Shown here one piece after another: positions 3,883 to 61,460 of a stretch of 64,000 bases of DNA (position 1 is its first letter; every line of letters begins with the position of its first letter). The position numbers and the translations under genes were made by a program. This DNA comes from Minisyncoccia bacterium. Lineage in GTDB: Bacteria > Patescibacteriota > Minisyncoccia > Phycocordibacterales > PALSA-1337. Where the stretch lies: contig JBGAUV010000001.1 in assembly GCA_044228445.1 (NCBI GenBank), positions 15,827-79,826 on the forward strand, read 5' to 3'. The notes beneath the pieces are model-generated. The model searched no databases. It had not been told where the DNA came from and saw nothing but the letters and a program-made list of their open reading frames with translations.

Positions 3883-4292
3883 TTTTTAATTTTATTAAGA
3901 AAAAACAGAGAAATAAAAGCACCTATAGTGTCATCGATCAAATCCTTAACAGTATCAAAATAATAAGCTCCTGAACCAACTGGAGCACTAGCAATATCAT
4001 AATAGGCCTCAATTCCTTCCCATAATAGACCCGCTATAAAAGTAAAAATTACAACATATATAAATATAGTTTTATTTGTACTCTTTTTTGATACTGTCTT
4101 AAGAAACCAAAACACAGAGAGACCAATTCCTATACCACCTAATATATGCATCATAATGTCATACCACCATATATTGTTATAAAAACCATACTCTGAACCT
4201 AATATATGAAGTACAAATACAAGCAACAGAACAAGAATCGCGGGTATATATGTTTTATTCATAAAGACTATTATACACAAAAATAAAAACAC
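3879..4292 (-). CDS. Small polytopic membrane protein, unknown function
   Basis: About 4 hydrophobic segments; no recognised motif. Confidence 0.4.
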   Translation of the reverse strand: MFLFLCIIVFMNKTYIPAILVLLLVFVLHILGSEYGFYNNIWWYDIMMHILGGIGIGLSVFWFLKTVSKKSTNKTIFIYVVIFTFIAGLLWEGIEAYYDIASAPVGSGAYYFDTVKDLIDDTIGAFISLFFLNKIKK

Positions 4293-4493
4293 CTGCCCCT
4301 TTTGAAGCAGATGATTTTATTAGGCTACTGGAGTATTAGACCTAGTTAGACTAGGTGGGTGTCCTCAGACAATACACCACGGTGTATGACAATTTGAACT
4401 CCCAAAATATAAGTTAAGGATTAATACTCCCGTAACCTATAGTCATTATAAAACTTAAAAAATAGAATACAATAGACGAAGTGGATAAACTGT

Positions 4494-17296: not shown

Positions 17297-18481
17297 TTAA
17301 GCAACTATCTTTGTTATAACTCCGGCACCCACAGTCTTACCTCCTTCACGAATAGCAAATCTTTGCTTATCTTCTAGAGCAACTGGTGCTACTAGCTTTA
17401 CCTTGAATGTAACTGTATCTCCTGGCATAACCATTTCTACTCCTGTTGCTAGAGTAACTTCTCCAGTAACATCTGTTGTTCTTATGTAGAACTGAGGCTT
17501 ATAACCTGTGAAGAATGGTGTGTGACGTCCTCCTTCTTCCTTCTTTAGGATGTAAACTTCTGCTTCGAATTCTGTGTGAGGCTTTACTGAACCTGGCTTT
17601 GCTAGAACCATACCACGAGTAACATCATCCTTTGATGTACCTCTTAGTAGAAGACCAGCATTGTCCCCGGCAATAGCTTCTTTTAGAGACTTATTGAACA
17701 TTTCTATGAATGTAACAACTGTTTTTGAAGTTTCTCTGAAACCTAGGATTTCTACTTCTTCGTTTACCTTTAGTACCCCTCTTTCTACACGTCCTGTTAC
17801 TACAGTACCACGACCTTCAATTGAGAATATATCTTCTATAGGCATTAGGAAAGGCTTATCTACTTCACGAACTGGGTTTGGAATATAAGTATCAAGAGCG
17901 TTCATAAGATCCTTGATTTTTGCTACCCATTCAGCATCACCTTCTAGAGCCTTTAGAGCAGAACCACGAATAACTGGAGCTTCTTTTCCGTCGAAACCAT
18001 TCTTTGTAAGAAGTTCACGCACTTCTTCTTCAACTAGGTCAATAAGGTCTTTTTCAGGAACCATATCACACTTGTTTAGGAAAACTACAACTCTTGGAAC
18101 ACCAACTTGCTTTGCAAGAAGAATATGCTCTCTTGTTTGTGGCATAACTCCATCTTGTGCTGATACTACTAGAATAGCACCGTCCATTTGAGCGGCACCT
18201 GTAATCATGTTCTTTATGTAGTCAGCGTGTCCTGGTGCATCGATGTGAGCATAGTGACGATTTGCTGTTTCGTATTCTACGTGAGCAAGAGAAATAGTAA
18301 CGATTTTTGATGCATCTCTTACTGTACCTCCCTTTGCAATATCAGAATAAGCCTTGTTTTGAGCAAGACCGTCCTTTGCTTGAACAGCTAGGATAGAAGT
18401 AGTAAGTGTTGTTTTTCCGTGGTCAACGTGACCGATTGTACCAACGTTTACATGAAGCTTTGTACGATTGAATTCTGCCAT
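17297..18481 (-). CDS. tuf: Elongation factor Tu
   Basis: [23 protein letters not shown] GTPase motifs; 394 aa. Confidence 0.95.
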
Positions 18482-18644
18482 ATGATTTTAGTGCTTTAGT
18501 CCTTTTTCAATTGGGCGTGAAAGCCAGTTGAAGCAAGACTAAAGATAAATTGTTAATTAATAAGTAATGAACGCAAAGAAAAATGCGTATTGGCTATAGT
18601 AGCATGATAGCTATTTTAAAGTCAAATATATGTATTAATATATC

Positions 18645-21611
18645 TTATATACCGAATATTAGCTTGAAGGATTTAATTATTGAGGAATTAATTAATTCCA
18701 TATCATTATTTTCTATACCTAAAATATCAAATAGGGTCTTTTTATTTTCACTAGCAATTTTTGCTATATTAAATATGAATTGATTACTTTTTCCTTTTTC
18801 AGTTTCAATCGTAATTGGTATATCTTGTCCTACTGGATTATCGAAGATTACTAAATCTATTTCGATCTTATTTTGATCTTTTGTCTCTACATTTTTTAAT
18901 ACTCCATTTATACTAACTACATTTTTACCATTATTAAAGTTTATACCATTTATTATTAATTTATTTTTTTCTTGCACTATTGATAATATATATGGACTAA
19001 GTTCACCAACTATTACAAGAGGTTTGCCGATTTCTTGGTCTGATTTTTTTATTATATTTGAATAATTATTTTTTGAATCATACGCCCCCATTCCGCTAAA
19101 TGAGAAGCTGTACTGTCCTCTATATATACTTGTAGTTACCTCAGCATAAACATCAATTATTTTTTCTTCCCCTTTTTTCATAGCAAAGCCACTATTATTC
19201 TCCCCTTTGATTGGACCATAACCATAATAATTTTTACTCATACCCGGAACAAAATCTGGAACCAATCTAGTAGCAATTACATACAGATCCTTAACAACAA
19301 TATCTTCATACGCTTTTATTTTAACCTTAAAATCTAGTCTTATATTTTTCTCATTATTATTTCCATCGTATACAATCTTTGATGTAGAATTTGCAATATC
19401 TACAACTTCAGCAACACCAACAGTTTTATCTTTAAAATCACTTATTTCAAACTTATCACTAACTGAATTAATCTTTTTATTATCATTATTACTTACTCTA
19501 ATCTTATATATATCATTATCTATATTGTATGGAACTGCCCATCTAAATGTATGATTAGATATTTTTCCTGGATTTTCTACTACGGTATTTGATGATGTAA
19601 TTGTTTTTACTAAAGTTCTATTTCTAATATCATAAAGTTCAATTGACACATTACTAGAATTTCTTGATGACCATGTTATATCATAATTTTTAAACTTACT
19701 TATATCTCTATCAGAAAGCTGTACATCTTTTATAAGACTAACAGAGTTATCTACTATTTTACCTCTTGCATCATCTGACCCAGGAGTTGCAACAGTTGAA
19801 TTAACTAGACTAAGAATATTTGATTTATTTTCTTTTACTTTATATGAATTAAAACCATAACCAAAGTTTATCTTATCTATAACCGCATATACATTTCCAT
19901 TTATTGGTAATTCTTTTTGACTAGCCTCATCATAATATGTAGTGCCGGAATTAAATTCTGCACTGATAGTTATCGTTCTACCTTTTTTAAGTAAATAATA
20001 TGGTCCTGCATTTGGTTCAACCATATTTTGTATATCTGTAACAGTACCAATAGTTATAACTTTTCTACGTTCATCTATTATATTTTTATCATCAAAATAT
20101 AATTTAACAGTTAAGAAGCCATTTTTAGGTAAATTAATATCTTCTAGTGCTGTTAAGTTTATTTTAAAAGTCCCATGAATTTGAGGTGATTTCCAATTAG
20201 AATTATTGTATAAAATTATTTTTGGGTCATCTTTTATCTCTACAGATATATTTTTATCTTTTAGAATTATATTGCAGGAATTAAGAAATTTATTCATTTC
20301 AACATCTCTTTGAGTGTCTGAAGAATATATTGGTTTCATTTCAATCGGTATAAAGTTTTGTCCTAAAAAGTTTGCGAAATCCTTACTTAAATAATATTTT
20401 CTATACTCATTGAATGCTAGTTTCAAATATCTTTTCATATTTGTCTTATCCACATCAAATGGAAATTGATCTACCGCTAACTGCATTTTGTATAGATTAT
20501 TTATATCACCAAAAATCTCTCTGGTAGTATTATAGTATTGTTTTTTAATATTTGAATTGTTATTATCGTATGAATTTATCAAAACATCATCTATATAACT
20601 TGGTGAAATATATTTACAATCACTCATAGACATATCGAAACCATATGGTATTGCTTTCCATTTTTTAGTTGTTAAATCCATTCCATAATCTTCATTATGA
20701 AGCGTTGATCTATCTCCTATTTGCAAAAAATAGGTCAGTATTTTGTATTTAATCTGTGATTCAATATCCATATCAATATTTACAACTTTATTATTCTTTA
20801 CATCTTTATAACTTACAGTATATATGGAGTTTTTTTCGGTATAAGTTCCTACCCATTTATCAAATTTACCATCTTCAATTAAATTTTGATCGAGGTTAAA
20901 TTGTCTTGTAAAAGGAATTTGATCATCCTGTTCATTATCTCTTTGTAAAACAATATAGTTATATGTATTACCCTCATAACCTTTTGTTGGTGTCTTGATT
21001 TTTAAATTTGCAAAAGCTACAGGGTCAACACTTGGTACACCAAACAGTCTTAATATTTTATAAAATGAGTAGTCCATCAATTGAATATCAACTGTTTTAT
21101 TGAATCCAAAGTGATATTCATCATATAAAAAACCAGCAAAATCTAATAAATCACAATTAGAAACAAATCTCACCTTTTGATATTGCAATGTTTTATAACC
21201 TCCATATGTAGATAAACCACCGAACAATTCTTTAGGTTTGCCCTTACTATCAGTTTTATCAAAAGTGATATTAATCATAGGCGGCTGACAACTTGATCTA
21301 GCATGTCCCTTTTTTTCAAACTTTGTTTTCCATTTATTTATCTCTTTTCCTTTTGAATTGTATTCATATAACACAGAATCAGTATCTGTACTCCCGTCAG
21401 GGTTTACAATTTGTTCAACATCTTTATTTAATGTATCAAGAGTAAAGTTTCTAATTGGATACTTTATATCCTTATTAAGAGAACCGTCATTTATTTTGTT
21501 TTGTAAAAATAAATCATAACCATCTATTAAACCATCCTTATCCAAATCAACATTTTGAGCAAAAGAAATAATAGGAAAAATAAAAAACAAAACAAATAAG
21601 ATCTTTTTCAT
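18645..21611 (-). CDS. Very large (988 aa) secreted/surface protein with signal peptide and D-x-D-x-D-G calcium-binding-like motif near N-terminus
   Basis: MKKILFVLFFIFPIISFAQN signal peptide; DLDKDGLIDGYD motif; S/T/N-rich beta-type composition. Confidence 0.5.
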   Translation of the reverse strand: MKKILFVLFFIFPIISFAQNVDLDKDGLIDGYDLFLQNKINDGSLNKDIKYPIRNFTLDTLNKDVEQIVNPDGSTDTDSVLYEYNSKGKEINKWKTKFEKKGHARSSCQPPMINITFDKTDSKGKPKELFGGLSTYGGYKTLQYQKVRFVSNCDLLDFAGFLYDEYHFGFNKTVDIQLMDYSFYKILRLFGVPSVDPVAFANLKIKTPTKGYEGNTYNYIVLQRDNEQDDQIPFTRQFNLDQNLIEDGKFDKWVGTYTEKNSIYTVSYKDVKNNKVVNIDMDIESQIKYKILTYFLQIGDRSTLHNEDYGMDLTTKKWKAIPYGFDMSMSDCKYISPSYIDDVLINSYDNNNSNIKKQYYNTTREIFGDINNLYKMQLAVDQFPFDVDKTNMKRYLKLAFNEYRKYYLSKDFANFLGQNFIPIEMKPIYSSDTQRDVEMNKFLNSCNIILKDKNISVEIKDDPKIILYNNSNWKSPQIHGTFKINLTALEDINLPKNGFLTVKLYFDDKNIIDERRKVITIGTVTDIQNMVEPNAGPYYLLKKGRTITISAEFNSGTTYYDEASQKELPINGNVYAVIDKINFGYGFNSYKVKENKSNILSLVNSTVATPGSDDARGKIVDNSVSLIKDVQLSDRDISKFKNYDITWSSRNSSNVSIELYDIRNRTLVKTITSSNTVVENPGKISNHTFRWAVPYNIDNDIYKIRVSNNDNKKINSVSDKFEISDFKDKTVGVAEVVDIANSTSKIVYDGNNNEKNIRLDFKVKIKAYEDIVVKDLYVIATRLVPDFVPGMSKNYYGYGPIKGENNSGFAMKKGEEKIIDVYAEVTTSIYRGQYSFSFSGMGAYDSKNNYSNIIKKSDQEIGKPLVIVGELSPYILSIVQEKNKLIINGINFNNGKNVVSINGVLKNVETKDQNKIEIDLVIFDNPVGQDIPITIETEKGKSNQFIFNIAKIASENKKTLFDILGIENNDMELINSSIIKSFKLIFGI

Positions 21612-21657
21612 TTAAATATATTTATGAAATTTAATGATTATATTGTAACATGTTGTA

Positions 21658-22437
21658 ATGAAGAGATATTTCTTATTTATCCCCCATCTAATCATTTTGT
21701 TTATTATTTTGGTAATACTTGCCAATAGACTTGGTATTACAAATACAAAAGGAATTATCGATGAAACAAGTTCTTGTTATGAAAAAGGTGCATGTATAAA
21801 TACAGATTGGGAGAGGACTGAAGAATGGATCGTAGTAAAGAAAGCCTTGGTAAATGATTATGCGACTATAGCTAAAGTCTCAGAAATAACTAAAGTATCC
21901 CCAAAAATGATTATGGCAATAACCTCAGTAGAACAAATGCGTCTCTTTTTTGATGAAAGAGAAATATTTAAACTTGTATTTAAACCTTTAGGAAAACTCG
22001 GAATTCAAACGAATTTCTCTTGGGGAATAACTGGAATTAAAGAAAATACTGCGAGAAAAATTGAAAAAAACATAAAAGATAAGGATTCTATATTTTATCT
22101 AGGTAAAGATTTAGAAAATATACTAGATTTTCATACAAATAATATAGATAGCGAGAGATTTGATAGATTAACTGATAATAAAAGTAATTATTATTCGTAT
22201 TTATATACAGCTTTATTTATTAAACAAATTTATACTCAATGGGAAAAATCTGGATATAATATTAAAGATAAACCAGAGATACTTGGTACTTTATATAGTT
22301 TAGGATTTGAAAAATCTATTCCTAAGCTCAAACCCTTAGCAGGTGGATCAGTTATCAATATAAATGAAACTAAATATAGTTTCGGTGGACTTACCTATCA
22401 AATTTATAATAGTAAGAGTATTAATGAAATAAAATAA
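21658..22437 (+). CDS. N-terminally membrane-anchored hypothetical protein
   Basis: Single N-terminal TM (LFIPHLIILFIILVILA), soluble C-terminal domain, no recognised motif. Confidence 0.45.
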   Translation: MKRYFLFIPHLIILFIILVILANRLGITNTKGIIDETSSCYEKGACINTDWERTEEWIVVKKALVNDYATIAKVSEITKVSPKMIMAITSVEQMRLFFDEREIFKLVFKPLGKLGIQTNFSWGITGIKENTARKIEKNIKDKDSIFYLGKDLENILDFHTNNIDSERFDRLTDNKSNYYSYLYTALFIKQIYTQWEKSGYNIKDKPEILGTLYSLGFEKSIPKLKPLAGGSVININETKYSFGGLTYQIYNSKSINEIK

Positions 22438-22482
22438 AAACACCTACTTCAATCGGTGCTTTTATTTTAACTTTTTCAAATA

Positions 22483-23700
22483 TTATTTGAATATACCGAA
22501 TAGCAATTTCATAGAATCAATGACTGAACCGGTTAATAATGAAACGAAGCTGCCATTTTTTATATTAGAATTATCAACTTGTTCGACTAAAACTGTAGGT
22601 GTATACAATTTTTCCAAACCATTTGTAATTGAATATATTTCATTTATACCTCCAATATCAGTTAGAGATATTTTATTAATAGATATATTTCTATTGGCTC
22701 TTATTCCATCATTCTTCTTTATTATTCCATTTGTTGTAAACTTTCTATAACTTCCACTAGGAATTACAAATAATTCTGAACTATCTCCTGTTAGTGATGA
22801 TGGAATAGAATTTGTTGAAGAGAAAGTATAACTAGTACCAGGAGTAATATTTACACCAAAAGACTTACGTCCATTTTTACTTATATATACATCCTTATTA
22901 CTAATATTGTTTATTGTAAAATTAAAACTAAAACTTGCTGAGTCTGGAGACAAAGTACCGTTATCTACTGTTTGAATATTTGAACTCGCATCAGTTACAT
23001 AAGGTGTAGTTGATGATGCTAGAGTTATTGTTCCTGTAACAATAGATGAACTGGCTTCAACAGGAACTTGTCTATTCAAGCTATCAAAAGCCATTATAGA
23101 ATCATTACTTGGTGTAAGTCTCAAATATAGTTTTGTTCCATCTGGTACCCCAGGCTTTATATGTCCGTAAACAGAAACCTGTACAAAACTATCAATCGGT
23201 AAAGATTTATTCATATCAACTGACATGTGTAGTTGAGTTGTTGTAGTAGAATAATTATCAATTATTATGTCACTTAAAACTTCATTTGCTAGTTTTCCTC
23301 CTGAAGTTATGATATCAAACTTCAAATTTCTTAATGTAGAAGAAGTATTTTTTGATTTTATTTCAAAAATACCTAGATTTATTTGAGAACCAGGATTATA
23401 CAATACAGTTCTCGTCATAGGTGAAGCGGGAGATAATCTTGAATTAATTATTTTTGTCGAAGTACCAGTAATAACTGTACATGTATATCCTAGAGGACAA
23501 CCTACCGGCTGAATTGGTAATGGAGTACAAATATAGTTTATGGGACAGATAGGATTTGTTTGTGCTTTTACATCCTTATATCCAAATACTAAACCTAATA
23601 AAAATATTAGAAATAAAACAAATATTTTATGGGACTTTATATTCATAAATAAAAAAATTAATATTACAAAATAAATTATAGCACAATACACACATATCAT
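22483..23700 (-). CDS. Secreted protein with duplicated N-terminal CPxGYxC cysteine motif (paralogue of next gene)
   Basis: N-terminal TM/signal then CPINYICTPLPIQPVGCPLGYTC; S/T-rich remainder. Confidence 0.5.
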   Translation of the reverse strand: MICVYCAIIYFVILIFLFMNIKSHKIFVLFLIFLLGLVFGYKDVKAQTNPICPINYICTPLPIQPVGCPLGYTCTVITGTSTKIINSRLSPASPMTRTVLYNPGSQINLGIFEIKSKNTSSTLRNLKFDIITSGGKLANEVLSDIIIDNYSTTTTQLHMSVDMNKSLPIDSFVQVSVYGHIKPGVPDGTKLYLRLTPSNDSIMAFDSLNRQVPVEASSSIVTGTITLASSTTPYVTDASSNIQTVDNGTLSPDSASFSFNFTINNISNKDVYISKNGRKSFGVNITPGTSYTFSSTNSIPSSLTGDSSELFVIPSGSYRKFTTNGIIKKNDGIRANRNISINKISLTDIGGINEIYSITNGLEKLYTPTVLVEQVDNSNIKNGSFVSLLTGSVIDSMKLLFGIFK

Positions 23701-23739
23701 ATGTGTGTATTGTTGATATTAATTAAATTATTTATTTAA

Positions 23740-25161
23740 TTACATTATTAATGAAGCCAAAGTTATGACAGAGTCAAAAACTGAAGCAACATAATGCCAA
23801 CCATTATTTTTTGTTACTGGGGCGGATTGTGAAATTACATTAAACTTCACTGTATAAACATCATCTCCCCACCAAATAACATCATAATATCCAGTCTTTG
23901 CATCATTTGGAACTGTGAATGTTATAACTTCATTGTTTGAATTTGTATAATTTACAAAACCATAACTTCCGAAGTTAAAATCTCCTAGAGTTACTGGTGA
24001 CTTTTTTGGATTGTTCAAAGTCAAAGTAACTTTTGTTCCTGGAGCACCTGATGCAGGATAAATTGATTTTATTCCTGGGGCAACAACTACCGCTGGTTGT
24101 ACACTTGCATTGGTTACTGATCCTTGTGTATTGTTTTGAATATTAGATTCATTTAATACTGTTGGAGCTATAACTTTGAATGTTGGAGAGAATACTCTTA
24201 CATTTCCTATTTCAACACCGATTCTTAAATCAGTATTTGTAAGCATATAATCTTCTACTTTCCAATCATATGATCTCTTTGTAGGATCAATATAACCTGT
24301 TCTTAGTGCTCCATATATATTTGGATTAGATGGAGACTGGAATATCAAAGTGAATCTAGCACTTTCAGGAACACCTGAAGCATTCCAATATATTGTATAT
24401 GTCTCCCCTTTTGTAACTGAAGTATTTTCAGTTACTTGAACTCCTGATGTTTTATTTACTATTTTTACATCAGTTATATTTGCATTCGCATAATATAATG
24501 TTTTTTCTGCTACGGGTGGAGTTGGTGGTAACTTTGGTCCAACATTTGCATTTGCACCTGCTGGTACTCCAAGTGGCTTAATATTACCGATACCATTATT
24601 ACATCCATACAATTTATTTAATCTAGCGCGTGTCATAGGCCCAACAAAACCTGTTGTAGGAATTCCATTTTGTCTTTGGAATTTTTTTACAGCATCTTTT
24701 GTTGATATTCCAAACACTGGATTCTTCAATTCTCTCTCACTATTATTTATATCTATATTTTCTTTATCTTCCAAAAGAGTTTGTAGATTAAATAGTGCAA
24801 TACCAGAATCTTTTTCTATTGGTACACCTATGTCCATATTTCTAGGGTCAAGATCAAAGTTAAATGTATAACAATACTTTGGATCTAGTTTTGTTACACT
24901 ACTCTTAACTTCTTCTTTACCACTTGTTGTATCCTCAATTTTAAATGAAGGATTAACAGTTCTTGTTTCTATCTTTGAACATATATAGCCCGCAGGACAA
25001 CCAACTGGTTGTTCAACTATAGGTCTACATGTATATCCTGCTGGACAAGCAATAGCATTTGTATTTGTTTCTGCAAATACTTCCTTTACTTGTGGCAATG
25101 AATAAGCAGCCACTGTAAGAATGGCTACTGCAAGAATATGTTTTTGATGTTGATTTAACAT
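23740..25161 (-). CDS. Secreted protein with duplicated CPxGYxC motif and a putative peptidoglycan-binding (PG_binding_1-like) segment
   Basis: CPAGYTCRPIVEQPVGCPAGYICS after signal peptide; KDAVKKFQRQNGIPTTGFVGPMTRARL resembles PG_binding_1. Confidence 0.5.
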   Translation of the reverse strand: MLNQHQKHILAVAILTVAAYSLPQVKEVFAETNTNAIACPAGYTCRPIVEQPVGCPAGYICSKIETRTVNPSFKIEDTTSGKEEVKSSVTKLDPKYCYTFNFDLDPRNMDIGVPIEKDSGIALFNLQTLLEDKENIDINNSERELKNPVFGISTKDAVKKFQRQNGIPTTGFVGPMTRARLNKLYGCNNGIGNIKPLGVPAGANANVGPKLPPTPPVAEKTLYYANANITDVKIVNKTSGVQVTENTSVTKGETYTIYWNASGVPESARFTLIFQSPSNPNIYGALRTGYIDPTKRSYDWKVEDYMLTNTDLRIGVEIGNVRVFSPTFKVIAPTVLNESNIQNNTQGSVTNASVQPAVVVAPGIKSIYPASGAPGTKVTLTLNNPKKSPVTLGDFNFGSYGFVNYTNSNNEVITFTVPNDAKTGYYDVIWWGDDVYTVKFNVISQSAPVTKNNGWHYVASVFDSVITLASLIM

Positions 25162-25380
25162 AGTTTGTTAATAATTTTAATAATCGCACAATATTTACGA
25201 ACCTAATTTCAAACCTACTTTTAAAAGTTATTTGATATATGATCAAATATTCAAGTAGTTTATAAAAAGAAAAATCGAGCCAGTTTCCTGTGCCCGTTTT
25301 CGAGTAGTGTCTCTTGCTTATAAGAATACTACTTAATATTTTTCTTTGCAATTGTAGTTATCCACAATTGCTATTTTATA

Positions 25381-27525
25381 TTATTTTCTAGCTTCTGCTA
25401 TTTCCTTTTCAATATTTGGTGGAACTACTTCATAGTGATCGAATTCCATTGTTGAGCTTCCTTGTCCTGAAGTCATAGAACGAAGCTGAGTAGTGTAACC
25501 GAACATTTCTGATAGAGGAACCTTGGCATGAAGTACCTTTGCTTGGCCTCTTTCTGTCATTTCTTCAATAGTACCTCGCTTTGACGAGATAGAACCTGTT
25601 ATATCACCCATATACTTTTCTGGGAATAGAACCTCTACCTTCATGATAGGCTCTAGTATAACTGGTCTTGCTCTTCTAGCAGCTTCTTGGAAAGCTTGTG
25701 AACCTGCTATCTTGTAAGCAATTTCTGATGAGTCAACATCGTGGTATGAACCGAATGTAAGTTCACAACTTACATTTACCATTTTGTATCCCGCAACAAT
25801 ACCTCTATCCATAGCTTCATGTACTCCCTTTTCAACTGCTGGAATAAATTCTTGTGGAATTACTCCTCCTTTAATTGAATCAATGAATTCAAAGTCATCA
25901 TAACGGCTAACATTTTTTGGAATCTTAGCTCCTGGTTCAATAGGCTTCATTGGAGATATTGTAATCTTCACGTGACCGTATTGTCCTTTACCTCCAGACT
26001 GCTTGATGTATTTATGTTCAGCTTCAGCAGTTCCAAGAATTGTTTCTCTGTATGCTACTTGTGGTTTACCAACATTTGCTTCAACACCGAATTCTCTCTT
26101 CATACGATCAACCATAATTTCAAGATGTAGTTCTCCCATACCTGCAATTAGTGTTTCTCCTGTTTCTGGGTTTGAACTTACTTTGAATGTTGGATCTTCA
26201 TTTGTAAGTTTACGAAGTGCCATACCCATTTTTTCTTGATCAGCTTTTGTCTTTGGTTCAATACGAAGTGATACCACAGGTTCTACGAATTTTATTGCTT
26301 CAAGAACAATTGGATTATTTTCATCACAGAATGTATGTGAAGTAAGTGCATCTTTTAATCCTACAGCAGCTGCAATTTCTCCTGCGAAAACTTTTTTAAC
26401 TTCTTCTCTCTTATCAGCTTGTAGACGAACAATACGTCCTAGTCTTTCTTTCTTTCCAGTTGTTGAGTTATATATATATGTACCTGCTTCTATTGTTCCA
26501 GAATAAACTCTAAAGAAAGTAAGTTGTCCTACGAATGGATCGTTTTGAAGTTTGAATGCTAGAGCTGCAAAAGGTTCTTCATCACTTGGTTTTCTTTCTA
26601 TTATTTCACCTGTATTTGGATTTGTACCTTTTACAGACTTTAGATCTGTAGGCGCTGGTAAATAATCAACAACAGCGTCAAGTACTAGTTGAACTCCAAC
26701 ATTTTTTAGAGCAGAACCTGTAAACACTGGGAATATTTTATTTTCAATTACCAGTTTTCTTATTTCAGCTTTTAGAACATCGACTGGAATTTCTTTTCCA
26801 TCCAAATACTGTTGCATAAGAGTATCATTATGTTCAACTGATTTTTCTATAAGTTCAGCATGATATTTTTTTGCATCGGCAAGATAAGCTTCTGGAATTT
26901 CTTTTTCTATAACATTAATTCCCTTTTCACCGTCAAAATAATAAGCCTTCATCTTTAATAGATCGATAACACCATTGTGTTCTCCTTCTGTACCTATTGG
27001 AATTTGGAATCTTACTGCTTTTTTATTTAGTCTTTCAAGGATAGATGCATATGATCTTTCAAATGATGCACCCATTCTATCCATCTTATTTATAAAACAT
27101 AGACGAGGCACATTACTTTCATCTGCATATCTCCAGTTTGTTTCTGATTGAGGTTCTACCCCTGCTACTCCATCAAAAACCACAACAGCACCGTCAAGAA
27201 CACGAAGAGATCTTTTTACTTCTACTGTAAAGTCAATGTGACCTGGTGTATCGATAACATTGAAACGAACCTTTTTTGAAGTATCTGTCTTTGGCATATA
27301 TGAAGGATTCCAAAAACATGTAATAGCAGCTGCGGTAATAGTAATACCTCTTTCTCTTTCCTGTTCCATCCAGTCAGTTGTAGTTGCACCATCGTGAACT
27401 TCACCAATCTTATGGATCATACCTGTATAATAAAGAATACGTTCTGATGTAGTAGTTTTACCAGCATCAATATGGGCTATAATTCCAAAATTTCTAACTT
27501 TTTCTAGTGGGTAATCGCGATTCAT
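25381..27525 (-). CDS. fusA: Elongation factor G
   Basis: AHIDAGKTT, DTPGHIDF, NKMD motifs; 714 aa. Confidence 0.95.
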   Translation of the reverse strand: MNRDYPLEKVRNFGIIAHIDAGKTTTSERILYYTGMIHKIGEVHDGATTTDWMEQERERGITITAAAITCFWNPSYMPKTDTSKKVRFNVIDTPGHIDFTVEVKRSLRVLDGAVVVFDGVAGVEPQSETNWRYADESNVPRLCFINKMDRMGASFERSYASILERLNKKAVRFQIPIGTEGEHNGVIDLLKMKAYYFDGEKGINVIEKEIPEAYLADAKKYHAELIEKSVEHNDTLMQQYLDGKEIPVDVLKAEIRKLVIENKIFPVFTGSALKNVGVQLVLDAVVDYLPAPTDLKSVKGTNPNTGEIIERKPSDEEPFAALAFKLQNDPFVGQLTFFRVYSGTIEAGTYIYNSTTGKKERLGRIVRLQADKREEVKKVFAGEIAAAVGLKDALTSHTFCDENNPIVLEAIKFVEPVVSLRIEPKTKADQEKMGMALRKLTNEDPTFKVSSNPETGETLIAGMGELHLEIMVDRMKREFGVEANVGKPQVAYRETILGTAEAEHKYIKQSGGKGQYGHVKITISPMKPIEPGAKIPKNVSRYDDFEFIDSIKGGVIPQEFIPAVEKGVHEAMDRGIVAGYKMVNVSCELTFGSYHDVDSSEIAYKIAGSQAFQEAARRARPVILEPIMKVEVLFPEKYMGDITGSISSKRGTIEEMTERGQAKVLHAKVPLSEMFGYTTQLRSMTSGQGSSTMEFDHYEVVPPNIEKEIAEARK

Positions 27526-28097: not shown

Positions 28098-28517
28098 TTA
28101 AACCTTAGCAGCCTTTGGCTTTTTATTTCCGTACTGGCTTCTACCCTTTCTTCTCTTTTCTACTCCTCCTGCATCTAGAACACCACGAACTACTGAATAT
28201 CTAAGACCTACGTCCTTTACACGACCTCCTCTTAATAGAACAACTGAGTGTTCTTGCAGATTATGTCCTTCCCCTGGAATATATGCAGTTACTTCCATAC
28301 CATTACTTAGTCTTACTCTAGCAATCTTTCTAATAGCTGAGTTAGGCTTTTTTGGAGTCTTTGTTGTAACTTTTATACATACACCTCTTTTAAATGGAGA
28401 TGGGAAAAAGTTTGGACGATTTTTAATTGTATTAAAGCTCTTTGTTAGAGCAATAGACTTTGACTTACGCACAAAAGTCTTTCTTCTTCTCTTAATAAGT
28501 TGATTTATTGTTGGCAT
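28098..28517 (-). CDS. rpsL: 30S ribosomal protein S12
   Basis: MPTINQLI..R..., PKKPNSA.RK S12 signature. Confidence 0.9.
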
Positions 28518-28656
28518 TATTTATTTATTTCACCATAAAAGTGTACGCTTCACCGGCATATATATAGTATATAGACCGTGTTACTCACTTTTATGTTCTA
28601 TTAATGTACGTCTTTAAACGTGGGAATACTCTAACATATAGGTATATAAAAGAAAC

Positions 28657-28819
28657 GCGGCGGGGCCCCCGTGCCCCGCCGCTGCACCTTATTGAATCGA
28701 GCGCAATAAGATGCTCTGTCTAGGAACACAGGTATGAGCCGTTCCTGTGTCGGGTGAGGGTCTATGGACCTCACCCAATTCTTGCCTACACCACTGACTC
28801 GTGACCAATGTGTCGGCAA
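28657..28819. ncRNA. GC-rich array of 4-5 perfect hairpins; putative structured RNA, or 5' leader element of the str operon if minus-strand
   Basis: gcggcggggc-ccccgt-gccccgccgc, cttattg..caataag, acacagg..cctgtgt, gggtgagg..cctcaccc, ttgcc..ggcaa; >60% GC in ~30% GC context; the 64-aa ORF here is implausible. Confidence 0.35.
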
Positions 28820-28843
28820 ATTCAAAATCTTTTAATAATATAC

Positions 28844-28862
28844 GCCTTTTTTAAAAAAAGGC
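28844..28862. terminator. Perfect palindrome gcctttttt/aaaaaaggc, a bidirectional terminator-like hairpin after the M50 protease gene
   Basis: Read directly; U-run on both strands. Confidence 0.4.
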
Positions 28863-28871
28863 AAGTATATA

Positions 28872-29534
28872 CTATAAATTAATACCTGTAATAAGTGTGA
28901 ATAAAAAAGGTATAATTGGCTCAAATACTGGCCATAATAGGAATAGAACTATAAATATTGTAACTATTTGATTATTTTCTAGAATAGCTCTATATCTATT
29001 CATGCTATATGGTAAAAGGTTAAACAATACCTTTGAACCGTCCAAGGGTGGTATCGGAATAAGGTTAAATATACATAACACTGTATTTATAATTACAATA
29101 TAAGAAAATATAGATATCGTGGAGTGTGGCAACATATCCTGAAAAAACCTAATAGACAAGCCAAATACTAAAGCTAAAAATAGATTTGAACCAGGTCCAG
29201 CAATAGAAATAAGCATTTCCCCTACTCTACGATTCTTTATATTATATGGATTCCATTCTACAGGTTTTGCCCAACCAAATGTCATTCCAAGCATAGAAGT
29301 TATAAGTGGAATTATCACAGAACCATACAAATCCATATGTTTTATAGGGTTTAAAGTAAGTCTCCCCTGCAACCTTGGTGTAGGATCGCCTAAAATATCA
29401 GCTACATAACCATGGCATACTTCATGTATTACTACTGACATTATTAAAATTATTATTGATATTATGAATGCAATTGTGTCCATTTTATTAAAAAATAAAT
29501 AAGTCCTTGCCAAATACAATACATATGATAGCAT
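28872..29534 (-). CDS. M50 family (site-2 protease-like) membrane metalloprotease
   Basis: HEVCHG (HExxH) within TM segment, polytopic membrane profile. Confidence 0.65.
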   Translation of the reverse strand: MLSYVLYLARTYLFFNKMDTIAFIISIIILIMSVVIHEVCHGYVADILGDPTPRLQGRLTLNPIKHMDLYGSVIIPLITSMLGMTFGWAKPVEWNPYNIKNRRVGEMLISIAGPGSNLFLALVFGLSIRFFQDMLPHSTISIFSYIVIINTVLCIFNLIPIPPLDGSKVLFNLLPYSMNRYRAILENNQIVTIFIVLFLLWPVFEPIIPFLFTLITGINL

Positions 29535-59401: not shown

Positions 59402-60319
59402 TTACCCCTTCCTATGAAACTTTTGATGTACTTTCTTTAATTCACTATCTGTAATATGTGTATATATCTGTGTCGTTCCTATATTTGCATGTCCAAGTAA
59501 CATTTGAACCGAACGCAAATCAGCACCATTTCGCAATAAGTCTGTAGCAAAAGAGTGGCGAATAACGTGTGGAGTTACCTTTTTTGATATTCCAGCCTTA
59601 ATTGCATAAAACTTTATTATTCTTTCTACTGATCTTGGAGTTAAACGTAGTGTATTTCTTTTCTTTTTATCGGCAATTTGAACAAATAATGCATCGTCCA
59701 TGTCTTTTCTCTTTTTTAAATATTCATTTACCCATTTTTTTGCATTTTCTGATAAAAATACTACTCTGACCTTTTCTCCCTTTCCTCTTATAGAAAATTC
59801 ATCTAATTTCAAATTTATATCTCTTGGTAGGGAACATAGCTCTGAAACACGCAAACCTGTTGAAAATAACAATTCCATCATTGCTCTATCACGTAAACCT
59901 TGAATTGTATTTGTATCCGGTGCTTTTAATAAATCATTCAATTCCTCTATATTTATTAAATCTATTGATCTTTCTGCTACTTTTGCCAATTCTATTCTCT
60001 CTGGTGGTATTACTTCTATACTTCTCTTAGCTAAATACTTCAAAAAAGAGCGTAAAGCAATTAAATAATAATTCTGTGTACGTTTCTTTATTGGAGTAGG
60101 GGAGCCTCCTTTTACTTTTACTGTTTGTTGTCTATTTAACCAAAGTCTATACTCTCTAAGTACGGTATCTGTTATATCTTTTGGGTTTTTAACCTTAGTA
60201 TGCTGTAAAAATACACTTATATAGTGATCATAGTTTCTCACAGTACTCAAACTTCTTCCTTTTTCTATTTCTACATATTGAAGAAATTCTGTTTTGAGAT
60301 CTGTTATATTGTGCGACAT
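59402..60319 (-). CDS. xerC: Tyrosine site-specific recombinase XerC/XerD family (start moved to MSHNITDL)
   Basis: C-terminal R..H..R..Y catalytic box: RHSFATDLLRNGADLRSVQMLLGHANIGTTQIYTH. Confidence 0.85.
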   Translation of the reverse strand: MSHNITDLKTEFLQYVEIEKGRSLSTVRNYDHYISVFLQHTKVKNPKDITDTVLREYRLWLNRQQTVKVKGGSPTPIKKRTQNYYLIALRSFLKYLAKRSIEVIPPERIELAKVAERSIDLINIEELNDLLKAPDTNTIQGLRDRAMMELLFSTGLRVSELCSLPRDINLKLDEFSIRGKGEKVRVVFLSENAKKWVNEYLKKRKDMDDALFVQIADKKKRNTLRLTPRSVERIIKFYAIKAGISKKVTPHVIRHSFATDLLRNGADLRSVQMLLGHANIGTTQIYTHITDSELKKVHQKFHRKG

Positions 60320-60369
60320 GACTATATTGTAACAGAAATATAGTTTTCCACAGTTATACACAGAATTGT

Positions 60370-60398
60370 TTGACAAGCTTTTTCTATGGGAGTATATT
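60370..60398 (+). promoter_or_regulatory. Consensus sigma70-type promoter (TTGACA, 17-bp spacer, TATATT) driving the GC-rich noncoding unit
   Basis: TTGACA at 60370..60375, TATATT at 60393..60398. Confidence 0.45.
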
Positions 60399-60404
60399 CA
60401 TGTA

Positions 60405-60756
60405 CGAAGCAGTACATTGGAAGTAATTAAGCAGTAGTCGGTGAACCGATGTGACTGCTCTGTCACAAAACCCGCTCCACACGCGATGTGTGGAGCAAAT
60501 TGGAAAGGTCCCAACTATGAAGAGTCCGAACGCGCCCCCTGGCAACGTTACCGTTGCCACCGCCCCCCATGGATTCAATGGCCTGACGAAGGCCTCCACC
60601 CCCCTGCGGAATACGGAGTATCCCGACAACCCGGCCCGCATCGCCTCCTCCCAGAAGCTCGGAGAACCGAGCACGTACGGTTGCTCCGCCTGACCACTCT
60701 AATCCGGTCAGAACGAGCATTTGCCACTTCATCCGGTCGATGGAGTGGCATTTTTT
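60405..60756 (+). ncRNA. Putative ~350-nt GC-rich highly structured ncRNA (class unassigned; RNase P RNA / tmRNA / novel)
   Basis: No plausible ORF (four mutually overlapping G/P/R-rich ORFs); ~60% GC; perfect hairpins (gctccacac-gcgat-gtgtggagc, ggcaacg-ttac-cgttgcc, gctcgg-agaa-ccgagc, ctgacc..ggtcag); ends in terminator gccacttcatc-cggtcg-gatggagtggc plus TTTTTT. Confidence 0.45.
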
Positions 60757-60821
60757 ATATCTATTATAACCCTTAAAATAAGGGTATTTTTTATTATTTA
60801 ATACTCTATTCATAATTTTAC

Positions 60822-60850: not shown

Positions 60851-60856
60851 TTACCA

Positions 60857-61138
60857 GATGAACCTTGTTAGTACCCTTTATCTGGGGCAGGGAACATCTA
60901 AGGATCGGCGACGTAGCCAAATCCTTCAACACATGAATCTCTCCTAATGAGTTTATTGTTAGGAGAAAACGTGGGACTGAAAGGAGTCCATGAACAAAGA
61001 CCCGCCCGTCGAGTAAGATTTCTTGCTCGGACGACACAAAAAAGAATCAAACCTCAACCCGAGAACGCCAGCTCTATTGCCTAAGCGTTCTCATAACCCG
61101 GACTCTAGCGTGTTGCAACGCTCGAGTCCGATTTTTTT
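60857..61138 (+). ncRNA. Second putative structured ncRNA (~280 nt), ends at a strong intrinsic terminator just upstream of the rpsO promoter
   Basis: No ORF; hairpins tctcctaa..ttaggaga, gagaacgc..gcgttctc, ggat..atcc; terminator ggactctagcg-tgttgcaa-cgctcgagtcc plus gaTTTTTTT at 61100..61138. Confidence 0.35.
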
Positions 61139-61193
61139 ATAAAACACATACAGTATTGCTTTATAAACACATTCATGCTATTATCTTCACACA

Positions 61194-61460
61194 ATGCTTA
61201 CAACAAAACAGAAAGAAAAAGTAATAAAGCTTGCAGCGATTCACGATAAGGACACTGGCTCTCCAGAGGTTCAGATTTCAATTTTAACAAAGAAGATCAA
61301 TGAACTAGCTCTACATTTGAAGAAACATAAGAAAGACAATCACTCAAGAAGAGGTTTGTTAGCTATGGTTTCAGACAGACAAGCACATATGAACTATTTG
61401 AAGAAGAAGAATCCAAAGAGATACTCAAGTATTGCAAAAAAGCTAGATTTGAAGAAATAA
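61194..61460 (+). CDS. rpsO: 30S ribosomal protein S15
   Basis: S15 signature ...GSPEVQI..LT.KI..L..HLK.HKKD.HSRRGLL.MV..R...L.YL...; TTGCTT-17-TATTAT promoter ends about 10 nt before ATG (near-leaderless). Confidence 0.9.
   Translation: MLTTKQKEKVIKLAAIHDKDTGSPEVQISILTKKINELALHLKKHKKDNHSRRGLLAMVSDRQAHMNYLKKKNPKRYSSIAKKLDLKK

Follow-up and report, generated by a model that had tools for sequence, protein, structure and literature searches.

The spacer between the gene of an M50 peptidase and rpsL holds five GC-rich hairpins in a row, and the question raised by this locus is whether they belong to a small RNA gene of their own, to a leader of the str operon, to the 3' end of the M50 transcript or to a piece of foreign DNA. 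The window, by which we mean the whole stretch of DNA analysed here (64,000 nucleotides), has a mean GC content of 31.9% (sd 6.9% in 80-nt windows), and the five consecutive hairpins fill 28646-28830 at 54-58% GC in a genome of 32% GC; only one other region of the window matches this richness. A preliminary description of the stretch had put its GC content at over 60%. The enrichment is there, but the figure is slightly too high, as we count 58.3% over 28657-28819 and 53.5% across the whole inferred RNA. The flanking genes had been named correctly: the M50 gene (28872-29534, Pfam E = 5e-17) and rpsL (28098-28517), which is followed by rpsG and fusA, are all encoded on the minus strand. The str operon itself is split in the window (17297-27525), and four non-ribosomal genes, one with a peptidoglycan-binding domain and three without a Pfam match, including a 988-aa ORF, stand between fusA (25381-27525) and tuf (17297-18481).

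Fold and parts of the element

All five perfect stems that had been described (10, 7, 7, 8 and 5 bp) are present within 28657-28819. On the plus strand they lie at 28657-28682 (10 bp), within 28684-28714 (7 bp), and at 28725-28751 (7 bp), 28752-28776 (8 bp) and 28782-28819 (5 bp). On the minus strand, when G·U pairs are counted, the stems become longer; for example, hairpin 4 reaches 11 bp and hairpin 3 reaches 8 bp. The minus strand of 28640-28830 folds at -79.2 kcal/mol, compared with -57.0 +/- 4.2 kcal/mol in dinucleotide shuffles (z = -5.3), and the plus-strand fold of the element gives z = -5.3 too. Because of this z-score, and because none of the 200 shuffles folded as well as the minus strand of the element, the five-hairpin stretch is real and goes beyond chance. 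Its parts and the sites around it are as follows.

28859..28864, minus strand: -35 hexamer TTGCCT from the promoter scan, predicted driver of the element
28843..28863, minus strand: AT-rich palindrome, overlapping the promoter spacer
28837..28842, minus strand: -10 hexamer TATATT from the promoter scan, 16 nt past the -35 and 6-8 nt before the conserved AGAUUUUG start
28648..28830, minus strand: inferred RNA of ~183 nt, from the predicted start A28830 (AGAUUUUG...) to the end of the U-tract
28801..28830, minus strand: 5' module AGAUUUUGAAUUUGCCGACACAUUGGUCAC, made of the 5' tail and the 5' arm and apical loop of hairpin 1
28782..28819, minus strand: hairpin 1, UUGCC/GGCAA and CAC/GUG, with the conserved loop UGGUCAC
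28752..28776, minus strand: hairpin 2, GGGUGAGG/CCUCACCC, with the loop CAUAGA
28725..28751, minus strand: hairpin 3, 7-9 bp, the most variable hairpin, differing in loop and length among variants
28684..28714, minus strand: hairpin 4, 11-13 bp, with several G·U pairs
28646..28682, minus strand: hairpin 5 and U-tract, GCGGCGGGGC-ACGGGG-GCCCCGCCGC and then GUUUCUUUUAU, an intrinsic terminator by the terminator scan
28628..28636, minus strand: extended -10 TGtTAGAGT of the rpsL promoter, which bounds the element and is not part of it
28534-28595, minus strand: AT-rich motif, conserved and covarying, inside the rpsL 5'UTR (about 28518-28621)

The element is preceded by a sigma-70-like promoter (TTGCCT-16-TATATT, 28864-28837, minus strand), which is a prediction at the level of the consensus. 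A -35/-10 pair is found in all variants, as TTGCnT or TTGAAT combined with TATATT, TAGAAT or TATAAT, and the spacer between them has diverged. The position of the -35 after the M50 stop is kept in all variants as well as in the element-free relatives L193 and L100, and its sequence matches the ancestral str -35 (CTTGCC/CTTGCT) of relatives without the element. The palindrome that had been taken for a terminator beside the element does exist, but the role given to it does not hold: it falls in the promoter spacer and is not conserved, being present only in the window-, L082- and L196-type variants and missing from L083-L087, L096 and L092. The ends of the inferred RNA were taken from the positions of the predicted promoter and terminator and from the fold, and the match to the covariance model (CM) built from the element is 194 bits.

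These promoter matches bear on the reading in which the hairpins are a 3' UTR and terminator module of M50 acting as a transcriptional insulator, which would protect the 3' end of the M50 mRNA and stop read-through into the str promoter, with no function in trans. Serial stable hairpins are typical exonuclease barriers, and in most variants the stretch from the M50 stop to the element contains no terminator, so that M50 transcripts should end at hairpin 5. However, a -10 stands at the right spacing in every variant, and a purely 3'-protective role does not explain why the 5'-terminal 30 nt are nearly invariant. Furthermore, insulation does not appear to be an ancestral need, because element-free relatives do without any terminator between M50 and rpsL. 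We therefore consider the insulator reading quite improbable.

Protein coding and the known RNA families were considered as well. The 64-aa ORF that overlaps the element (28631-28825, minus strand) was already thought implausible; it exists, but it was rejected as a gene, as its frame is not conserved and is broken by stops or frameshifting indels in L082, L083, L084, L086 and L096. The Rfam search, which took in 6S, SRP and the curated ribosomal leaders and thus covered the families proposed for checking, gave no relevant match at the gathering score in the window, none at E <= 10 for 28450-28950 and none at E <= 0.5 for the relatives. A divergent copy of a universal small RNA (6S RNA or SRP RNA), as had been suggested, would agree with the length of ~180 nt, which is 6S-like, and a 6S or SRP gene was detected nowhere in the window. 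Nevertheless, apart from the missing Rfam matches, the fold is of another kind. The MFE, centroid and alignment-consensus structures all consist of five local hairpins, with neither a 5'-3' closing stem nor a rod with a central bubble, and SRP helix 8 with its GNAR tetraloop and internal loops is absent, the stems being uninterrupted and the loops being CAUAGA, CGCUCGAUU and similar. Moreover, close relatives lack the element although they, too, would depend on an RNA of this kind, and hairpins 2-4 are gone from the L092 clade. An origin from 6S or SRP RNA is thus extremely unlikely.

Conserved pairing in related genomes

For comparison, the same locus was collected from several related populations by way of contigs that encode an identical S12 protein and metagenome contigs with M50 homologs of graded similarity. 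The element comes in seven distinct versions (window, L196, L082, L083, L084, L086 and L096), and L092-95 carry a short form consisting only of the 5' tail, hairpin 1 and a terminator, in which hairpins 2-4 are lost. The covariation check in related genomes that the preliminary description had advised came out in favour of conserved stems. In the CM-based alignment of the seven sequences, standard pairs make up 95.6% of pair cells, compared with 44-47% when the pairing partners were slid by 1-3 columns; 8 pairs are changed on both sides, compared with 0-3 in the slid controls; and the covariation score is 0.232, compared with 0.055-0.093, a value reached by none of 500 shuffles. The RNAalifold consensus of the variants likewise keeps the hairpins by compensatory change. 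As the element occurs in a few closely related lineages only, this covariation represents few independent events.

The changes are distributed unevenly over the hairpins. Hairpin 1 (helix 1 of the alignment) has 95% of its cells paired and is mostly invariant, 3 pairs are changed on both sides in hairpin 2 (helix 2), and 5 pairs in hairpin 4 (helix 3). Hairpin 3 was misaligned by both MAFFT and the CM owing to indels, and its arms, when compared by hand, show C-G to A-U and A-U to G-C exchanges in either direction. The terminator is kept in all variants with 10-12 G-C pairs (ten in the window, in the stem 28682-28657), of which the outer 8 bp are invariant and an inner pair alternates between G-C and U-A. 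The 5' module is nearly invariant, with 27 of 30 columns unchanged among the 6 distinct variants of the long form, and AGAUUUUG, GCCGA and UGGUCAC are retained even in the short L092 form. Apart from these first 30 nt and the terminator, sequence and length are free to vary in the linkers and in the hairpin-3 loop. When the window is compared with L083/L084, identity is 0.70-0.71 in the element, 0.78-0.82 at third codon positions of rpsL and rpsG, and 0.90 in the rpsL 5' region; the sequence of the element, except for its near-invariant first 30 nt, drifts about as fast as synonymous sites.

The strand of the structure can be assigned from the same variants. The rpsL-sense strand folds better than its complement in 7 of 7 variants, by 4.7-21.7 kcal/mol, and it has 4-11 G·U pairs compared with 0-3 on the complement. 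Therefore, the structure is that of an rpsL-sense RNA and not of DNA palindromes. This result weighs against the idea that mobile or foreign GC-rich DNA (MITE, REP or IS200/605-end-like) left the element behind as a remnant without function, its palindromes working, now or in the past, at the DNA level. Such a remnant would account for a GC content foreign to the genome and for a clade-specific insertion at a place where other lineages have others (a KilA-N gene in L097/98, a 180-aa gene in L194 and IS605 OrfB after rpsG in L092-95). On the other hand, the element is a single copy both in the window, where a repeat search found no further copies, and in all loci compared, the CM finding only syntenic copies in 99 sources, and its compensatory changes have arisen in place at one orthologous locus. 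We also followed 14 viral contigs that carry an exact 17-mer of the conserved module and rejected them as chance matches, since they lie inside GC-rich phage coding sequence and no other part of the element is found there. A mobile remnant is, in our estimation, very unlikely.

At least 5 independent short-read assemblies break in or beside hairpin 5 (the equivalent of window ~28657-28690), at the end of L081, the starts of L089 and L088, and the ends of L096, L196 and L197. The perfect GC palindrome probably causes these breaks through problems of assembly or coverage. As assemblies break at this terminator hairpin, the element is often lost at contig ends and is therefore under-sampled.

Proposed insertion into the str promoter, and a 5'UTR motif of rpsL

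M50-rpsL synteny is found in 64 of the 98 loci compared, down to ~42% M50 identity. In most of these 64 loci, the gap is only 44-200 nt and contains no element; in the element-free form, a promoter (CTTGCn, ~17 nt, (TGn)TAnAGT) directly follows the M50 stop. The CM detects the element only in the clade with identical S12, besides weak syntenic matches in L097/98 (E = 6e-4), which is driven largely by the terminator, and in L092-95 (E = 2e-3). When the window and L084 are compared with the element-free L193 and L100, what follows the terminator, TTTCTTTTAT...TGTTAGAGT, aligns with the spacer and -10 of the ancestral promoter. From the synteny in 64 loci, mostly with a gap of 44-200 nt, we infer that the element is a clade-specific insertion of ~230 bp that separated the -35 of the ancestral str promoter from its spacer, and parsimony would date this insertion to the ancestor of one narrow clade with identical S12. 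Most likely, the element is confined to one genus-level clade of Paceibacteria-like Patescibacteria. Among the matches listed in a wider S12 scan of GTDB genomes, the relatives have <= 80% identity and no homolog of the element was found by blastn or nhmmer, and among those listed in a metagenome scan by M50 alignment (<= 62% identity), the synteny is present and the element is in none.

Downstream of the terminator, rpsL has retained a promoter of its own. Relatives keep the extended -10 of this promoter as TGnTAGAGT or TGnTAcAGT whether or not they carry the element, and TGnTAGAGT together with the conserved 5'UTR follows the terminator in the variants and is kept in the element-free L193 and L100 as well as in the insertion-bearing L097 and L194. 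In L097, it stays with rpsL even where a KilA-N gene parts rpsL from M50.

This arrangement bears on the reading of the element as a cis-acting leader or attenuator of the str operon; a regulatory leader had also been proposed from the start. According to this reading, the upstream promoter is the main str promoter, the five hairpins are a sensor, and hairpin 5 is a conditional terminator whose read-through sets the expression of rpsL-rpsG-fusA. The element indeed shares its strand with rpsL, lies immediately upstream of it and stands on the ancestral str -35, and its promoter could equally act as a first str promoter; in Pelagibacter, too, a structured, lineage-specific RNA has been proposed upstream of rpsL (rpsL motif, PMC2704228). 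In addition, the downstream rpsL promoter is left with a poor -35 (TTTCTT), and because the good -35 was lost, read-through from the upstream promoter could matter for rpsL. However, several observations do not fit a leader. First, the element is not inside the rpsL 5'UTR, as the terminator (28646-28682) and the extended -10 promoter (28628-28636) intervene and cut it off from rpsL, which has a conserved extended -10 and a covarying 5'UTR motif of its own. Second, the element does not accompany rpsL across the lineage; most of the 64 syntenic loci lack it, and relatives with the same synteny manage without it. Third, no mutually exclusive antiterminator is conserved: when the variants were folded without the 3' arm of the terminator, the alternative partners of its 5' arm differed and were not homologous, and the terminator itself keeps its 10-12 G-C pairs with the outer 8 bp invariant. 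Finally, no binding core of a riboswitch or attenuator was found in the junctions and loops outside the 5' 30 nt and the terminator, and the junctions and most loops are unconserved, unlike a ligand- or protein-sensing core. Taken together, we regard a leader function of the element as rather unlikely.

The conserved structure in the rpsL 5'UTR is a different, AT-rich motif (28534-28595), which on sequence grounds is a better candidate for a str leader than the five-hairpin element. Its outer helix has the forms AAAAGUG/CACUUUU, CAAAGG/CCUUUG, UAGAG/CUCUA and AUAGAAAG/CUUUCUAU, and 6 of its 10 pairs are changed on both sides among 7 sequences. The helix encloses two conserved strands, RYGAGUAAY and GGUGAAR, which are parted by a hairpin of variable length and form an AGUA/GAA, loop-E-like pair of strands. 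Of the 64 synteny loci, 15 contain the motif, and in each of these S12 is at least 86% identical; none of 79 control rpsL loci has it, and no Rfam family matches it. Its segments GGUGAGUAACACG and GAGUA...GGUNAAAAC may resemble universal 16S segments (~nt 105 and helix 27). We propose this motif as a candidate for a new S12/S7 autoregulatory leader.

In related lineages, the M50-rpsL spacer and the region around it form a hot spot of insertion. A KilA-N gene with a small promoter-terminator unit occupies the spacer in L097/L098 (3106-4418), and a 180-aa gene occupies it in L194 (2106-3099). In L111 (~4130-4350), an unrelated promoter-to-terminator unit of ~175 nt, in which no homology to the element was detected, is located just upstream of the rpsL promoter, and L092-L095 (4420-5604) have an IS605 OrfB (TnpB-like) gene directly after rpsG.

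Two more GC-rich multi-hairpin units are found elsewhere in the window, at 60398-60757 and 60853-61130 on the plus strand, between a divergent tyrosine recombinase gene (59402-60376) and rpsO (61194-61460). They reach 69% GC, have fold z-scores of -5.1 and -6.9, and each has a TTGACA-type promoter and an intrinsic terminator; no Rfam match was found for them and no tmRNA by ARAGORN. Both are conserved in relatives with 70-88% identity, the second being replaced by a longer version of ~500 nt in some of them, and neither has sequence similarity to the element. A promoter-like site (TTGCTT, 17 nt, TATTAT; ~61150-61196) precedes rpsO, and as it ends only 9 nt before the ATG, the S15 mRNA would be nearly leaderless if transcribed from it.

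Proposed mechanism and comparison with known systems

With moderate confidence, we read the element as the gene of a small non-coding RNA of ~183 nt that is encoded on the minus strand (~28830 to 28648) and transcribed on its own. The earlier suggestion of a small structured RNA is borne out to this extent, as the hairpins are kept by compensatory changes and a strand, a predicted promoter and a terminator can be assigned. Compared with small RNA genes in general, the element has a promoter and an intrinsic terminator of its own at the level of the consensus, and it is non-coding with pairing kept by compensatory change.

The proposed mechanism begins with the insertion of ~230 bp, after which the resident -35 and a new -10 would drive the RNA. 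Transcription would end at hairpin 5 and the resident T-rich spacer, and rpsL would be transcribed from its retained extended -10 promoter. Use of the str -35 would couple production of the RNA to ribosomal-protein transcription, and because most variants have no terminator between M50 and the element, M50 transcripts probably also enter it. The RNA may then be released as a stand-alone species, whose near-invariant module (the single-stranded AGAUUUUG tail and the apical loop UGGUCAC of hairpin 1) would contact a partner RNA or protein in trans. Hairpins 2-4 would serve as structural or protective modules, the sequence of which can drift freely while pairing holds.

Candidate partners were sought in the window. 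Duplex predictions of the 5' module with the translation-start regions there were not above those of shuffled seeds (p about 0.07), and the top matches fell in another GC-rich RNA region of the window. GUGACCA sites occur at the chance rate and on antisense strands, and the UGGUCAC loop fits the 3' end of none of the 4 tRNAs of the window.

A wider proposal can be made in addition to the small RNA reading. Paceibacteria-like bacteria may have several GC-rich, multi-hairpin RNA genes, each specific to a clade, that settle in or beside the core promoters of ribosomal-protein genes; the element upstream of rpsL would be one of them, and the two unclassified units upstream of rpsO would be further cases. 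The element would then split the str promoter, provide an RNA in fixed proportion to ribosomal-protein transcription and feed back on ribosome synthesis through the hairpin-1 module, for example as a decoy for a protein that binds the rpsL 5'UTR motif. We consider this a long shot; if true, it would add a new regulatory layer where no small RNA biology is known. In the literature searched, we found no description of small regulatory RNAs in Patescibacteria/CPR. If the element is merely an ordinary lineage-specific small RNA, its importance is modest. Even so, a small RNA candidate with covariation support and defined ends is a concrete target for metatranscriptomes, and the locus may illustrate the birth of an RNA gene by insertion into a strong promoter, in which the -35 is re-used and the downstream gene is left on its extended -10.

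The element can be compared with four known systems. Small RNAs of the DapZ and MicL type are embedded in 3' UTRs and have their own promoters. The element similarly follows a protein gene immediately, shares its terminator and has a predicted promoter of its own, but the -35 of this promoter comes from the next operon, and relatives lack the entire inserted unit. With 6S RNA (RF00013), the element has in common the length of ~180 nt and the predicted organization as a stand-alone gene with promoter and terminator. Unlike 6S RNA, it has no CM match, no rod or central bubble, and is not universal in its relatives.

Enterobacterial trans-acting small RNAs of the RybB and OmrA/B type have a conserved 5' module and a Rho-independent terminator. 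By analogy, ordinary trans-acting small RNAs with a conserved 5' module and an intrinsic terminator would be the nearest functional analogues of the element, which is likewise non-coding and about 100-200 nt long, with its own (predicted) promoter, its 5' end most conserved, a variable body and a 3' GC stem with a U-tract. It differs from them in having five serial near-perfect hairpins, in its place in a split ribosomal-protein promoter and in its host, an uncultivated Patescibacterium in which it is known from sequence alone. By position, the nearest known system is the Pelagibacter rpsL motif, a bulged stem and three-stem junction in the rpsL 5'UTR downstream of rpoC (Meyer et al. 2009, PMC2704228). 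In the element, by contrast, five independent hairpins with a terminator are followed by a separate rpsL promoter and 5'UTR motif. Nevertheless, both are lineage-restricted structured RNAs, and both are found in small AT-rich genomes, in a GC-richer intergenic stretch that immediately precedes rpsL.
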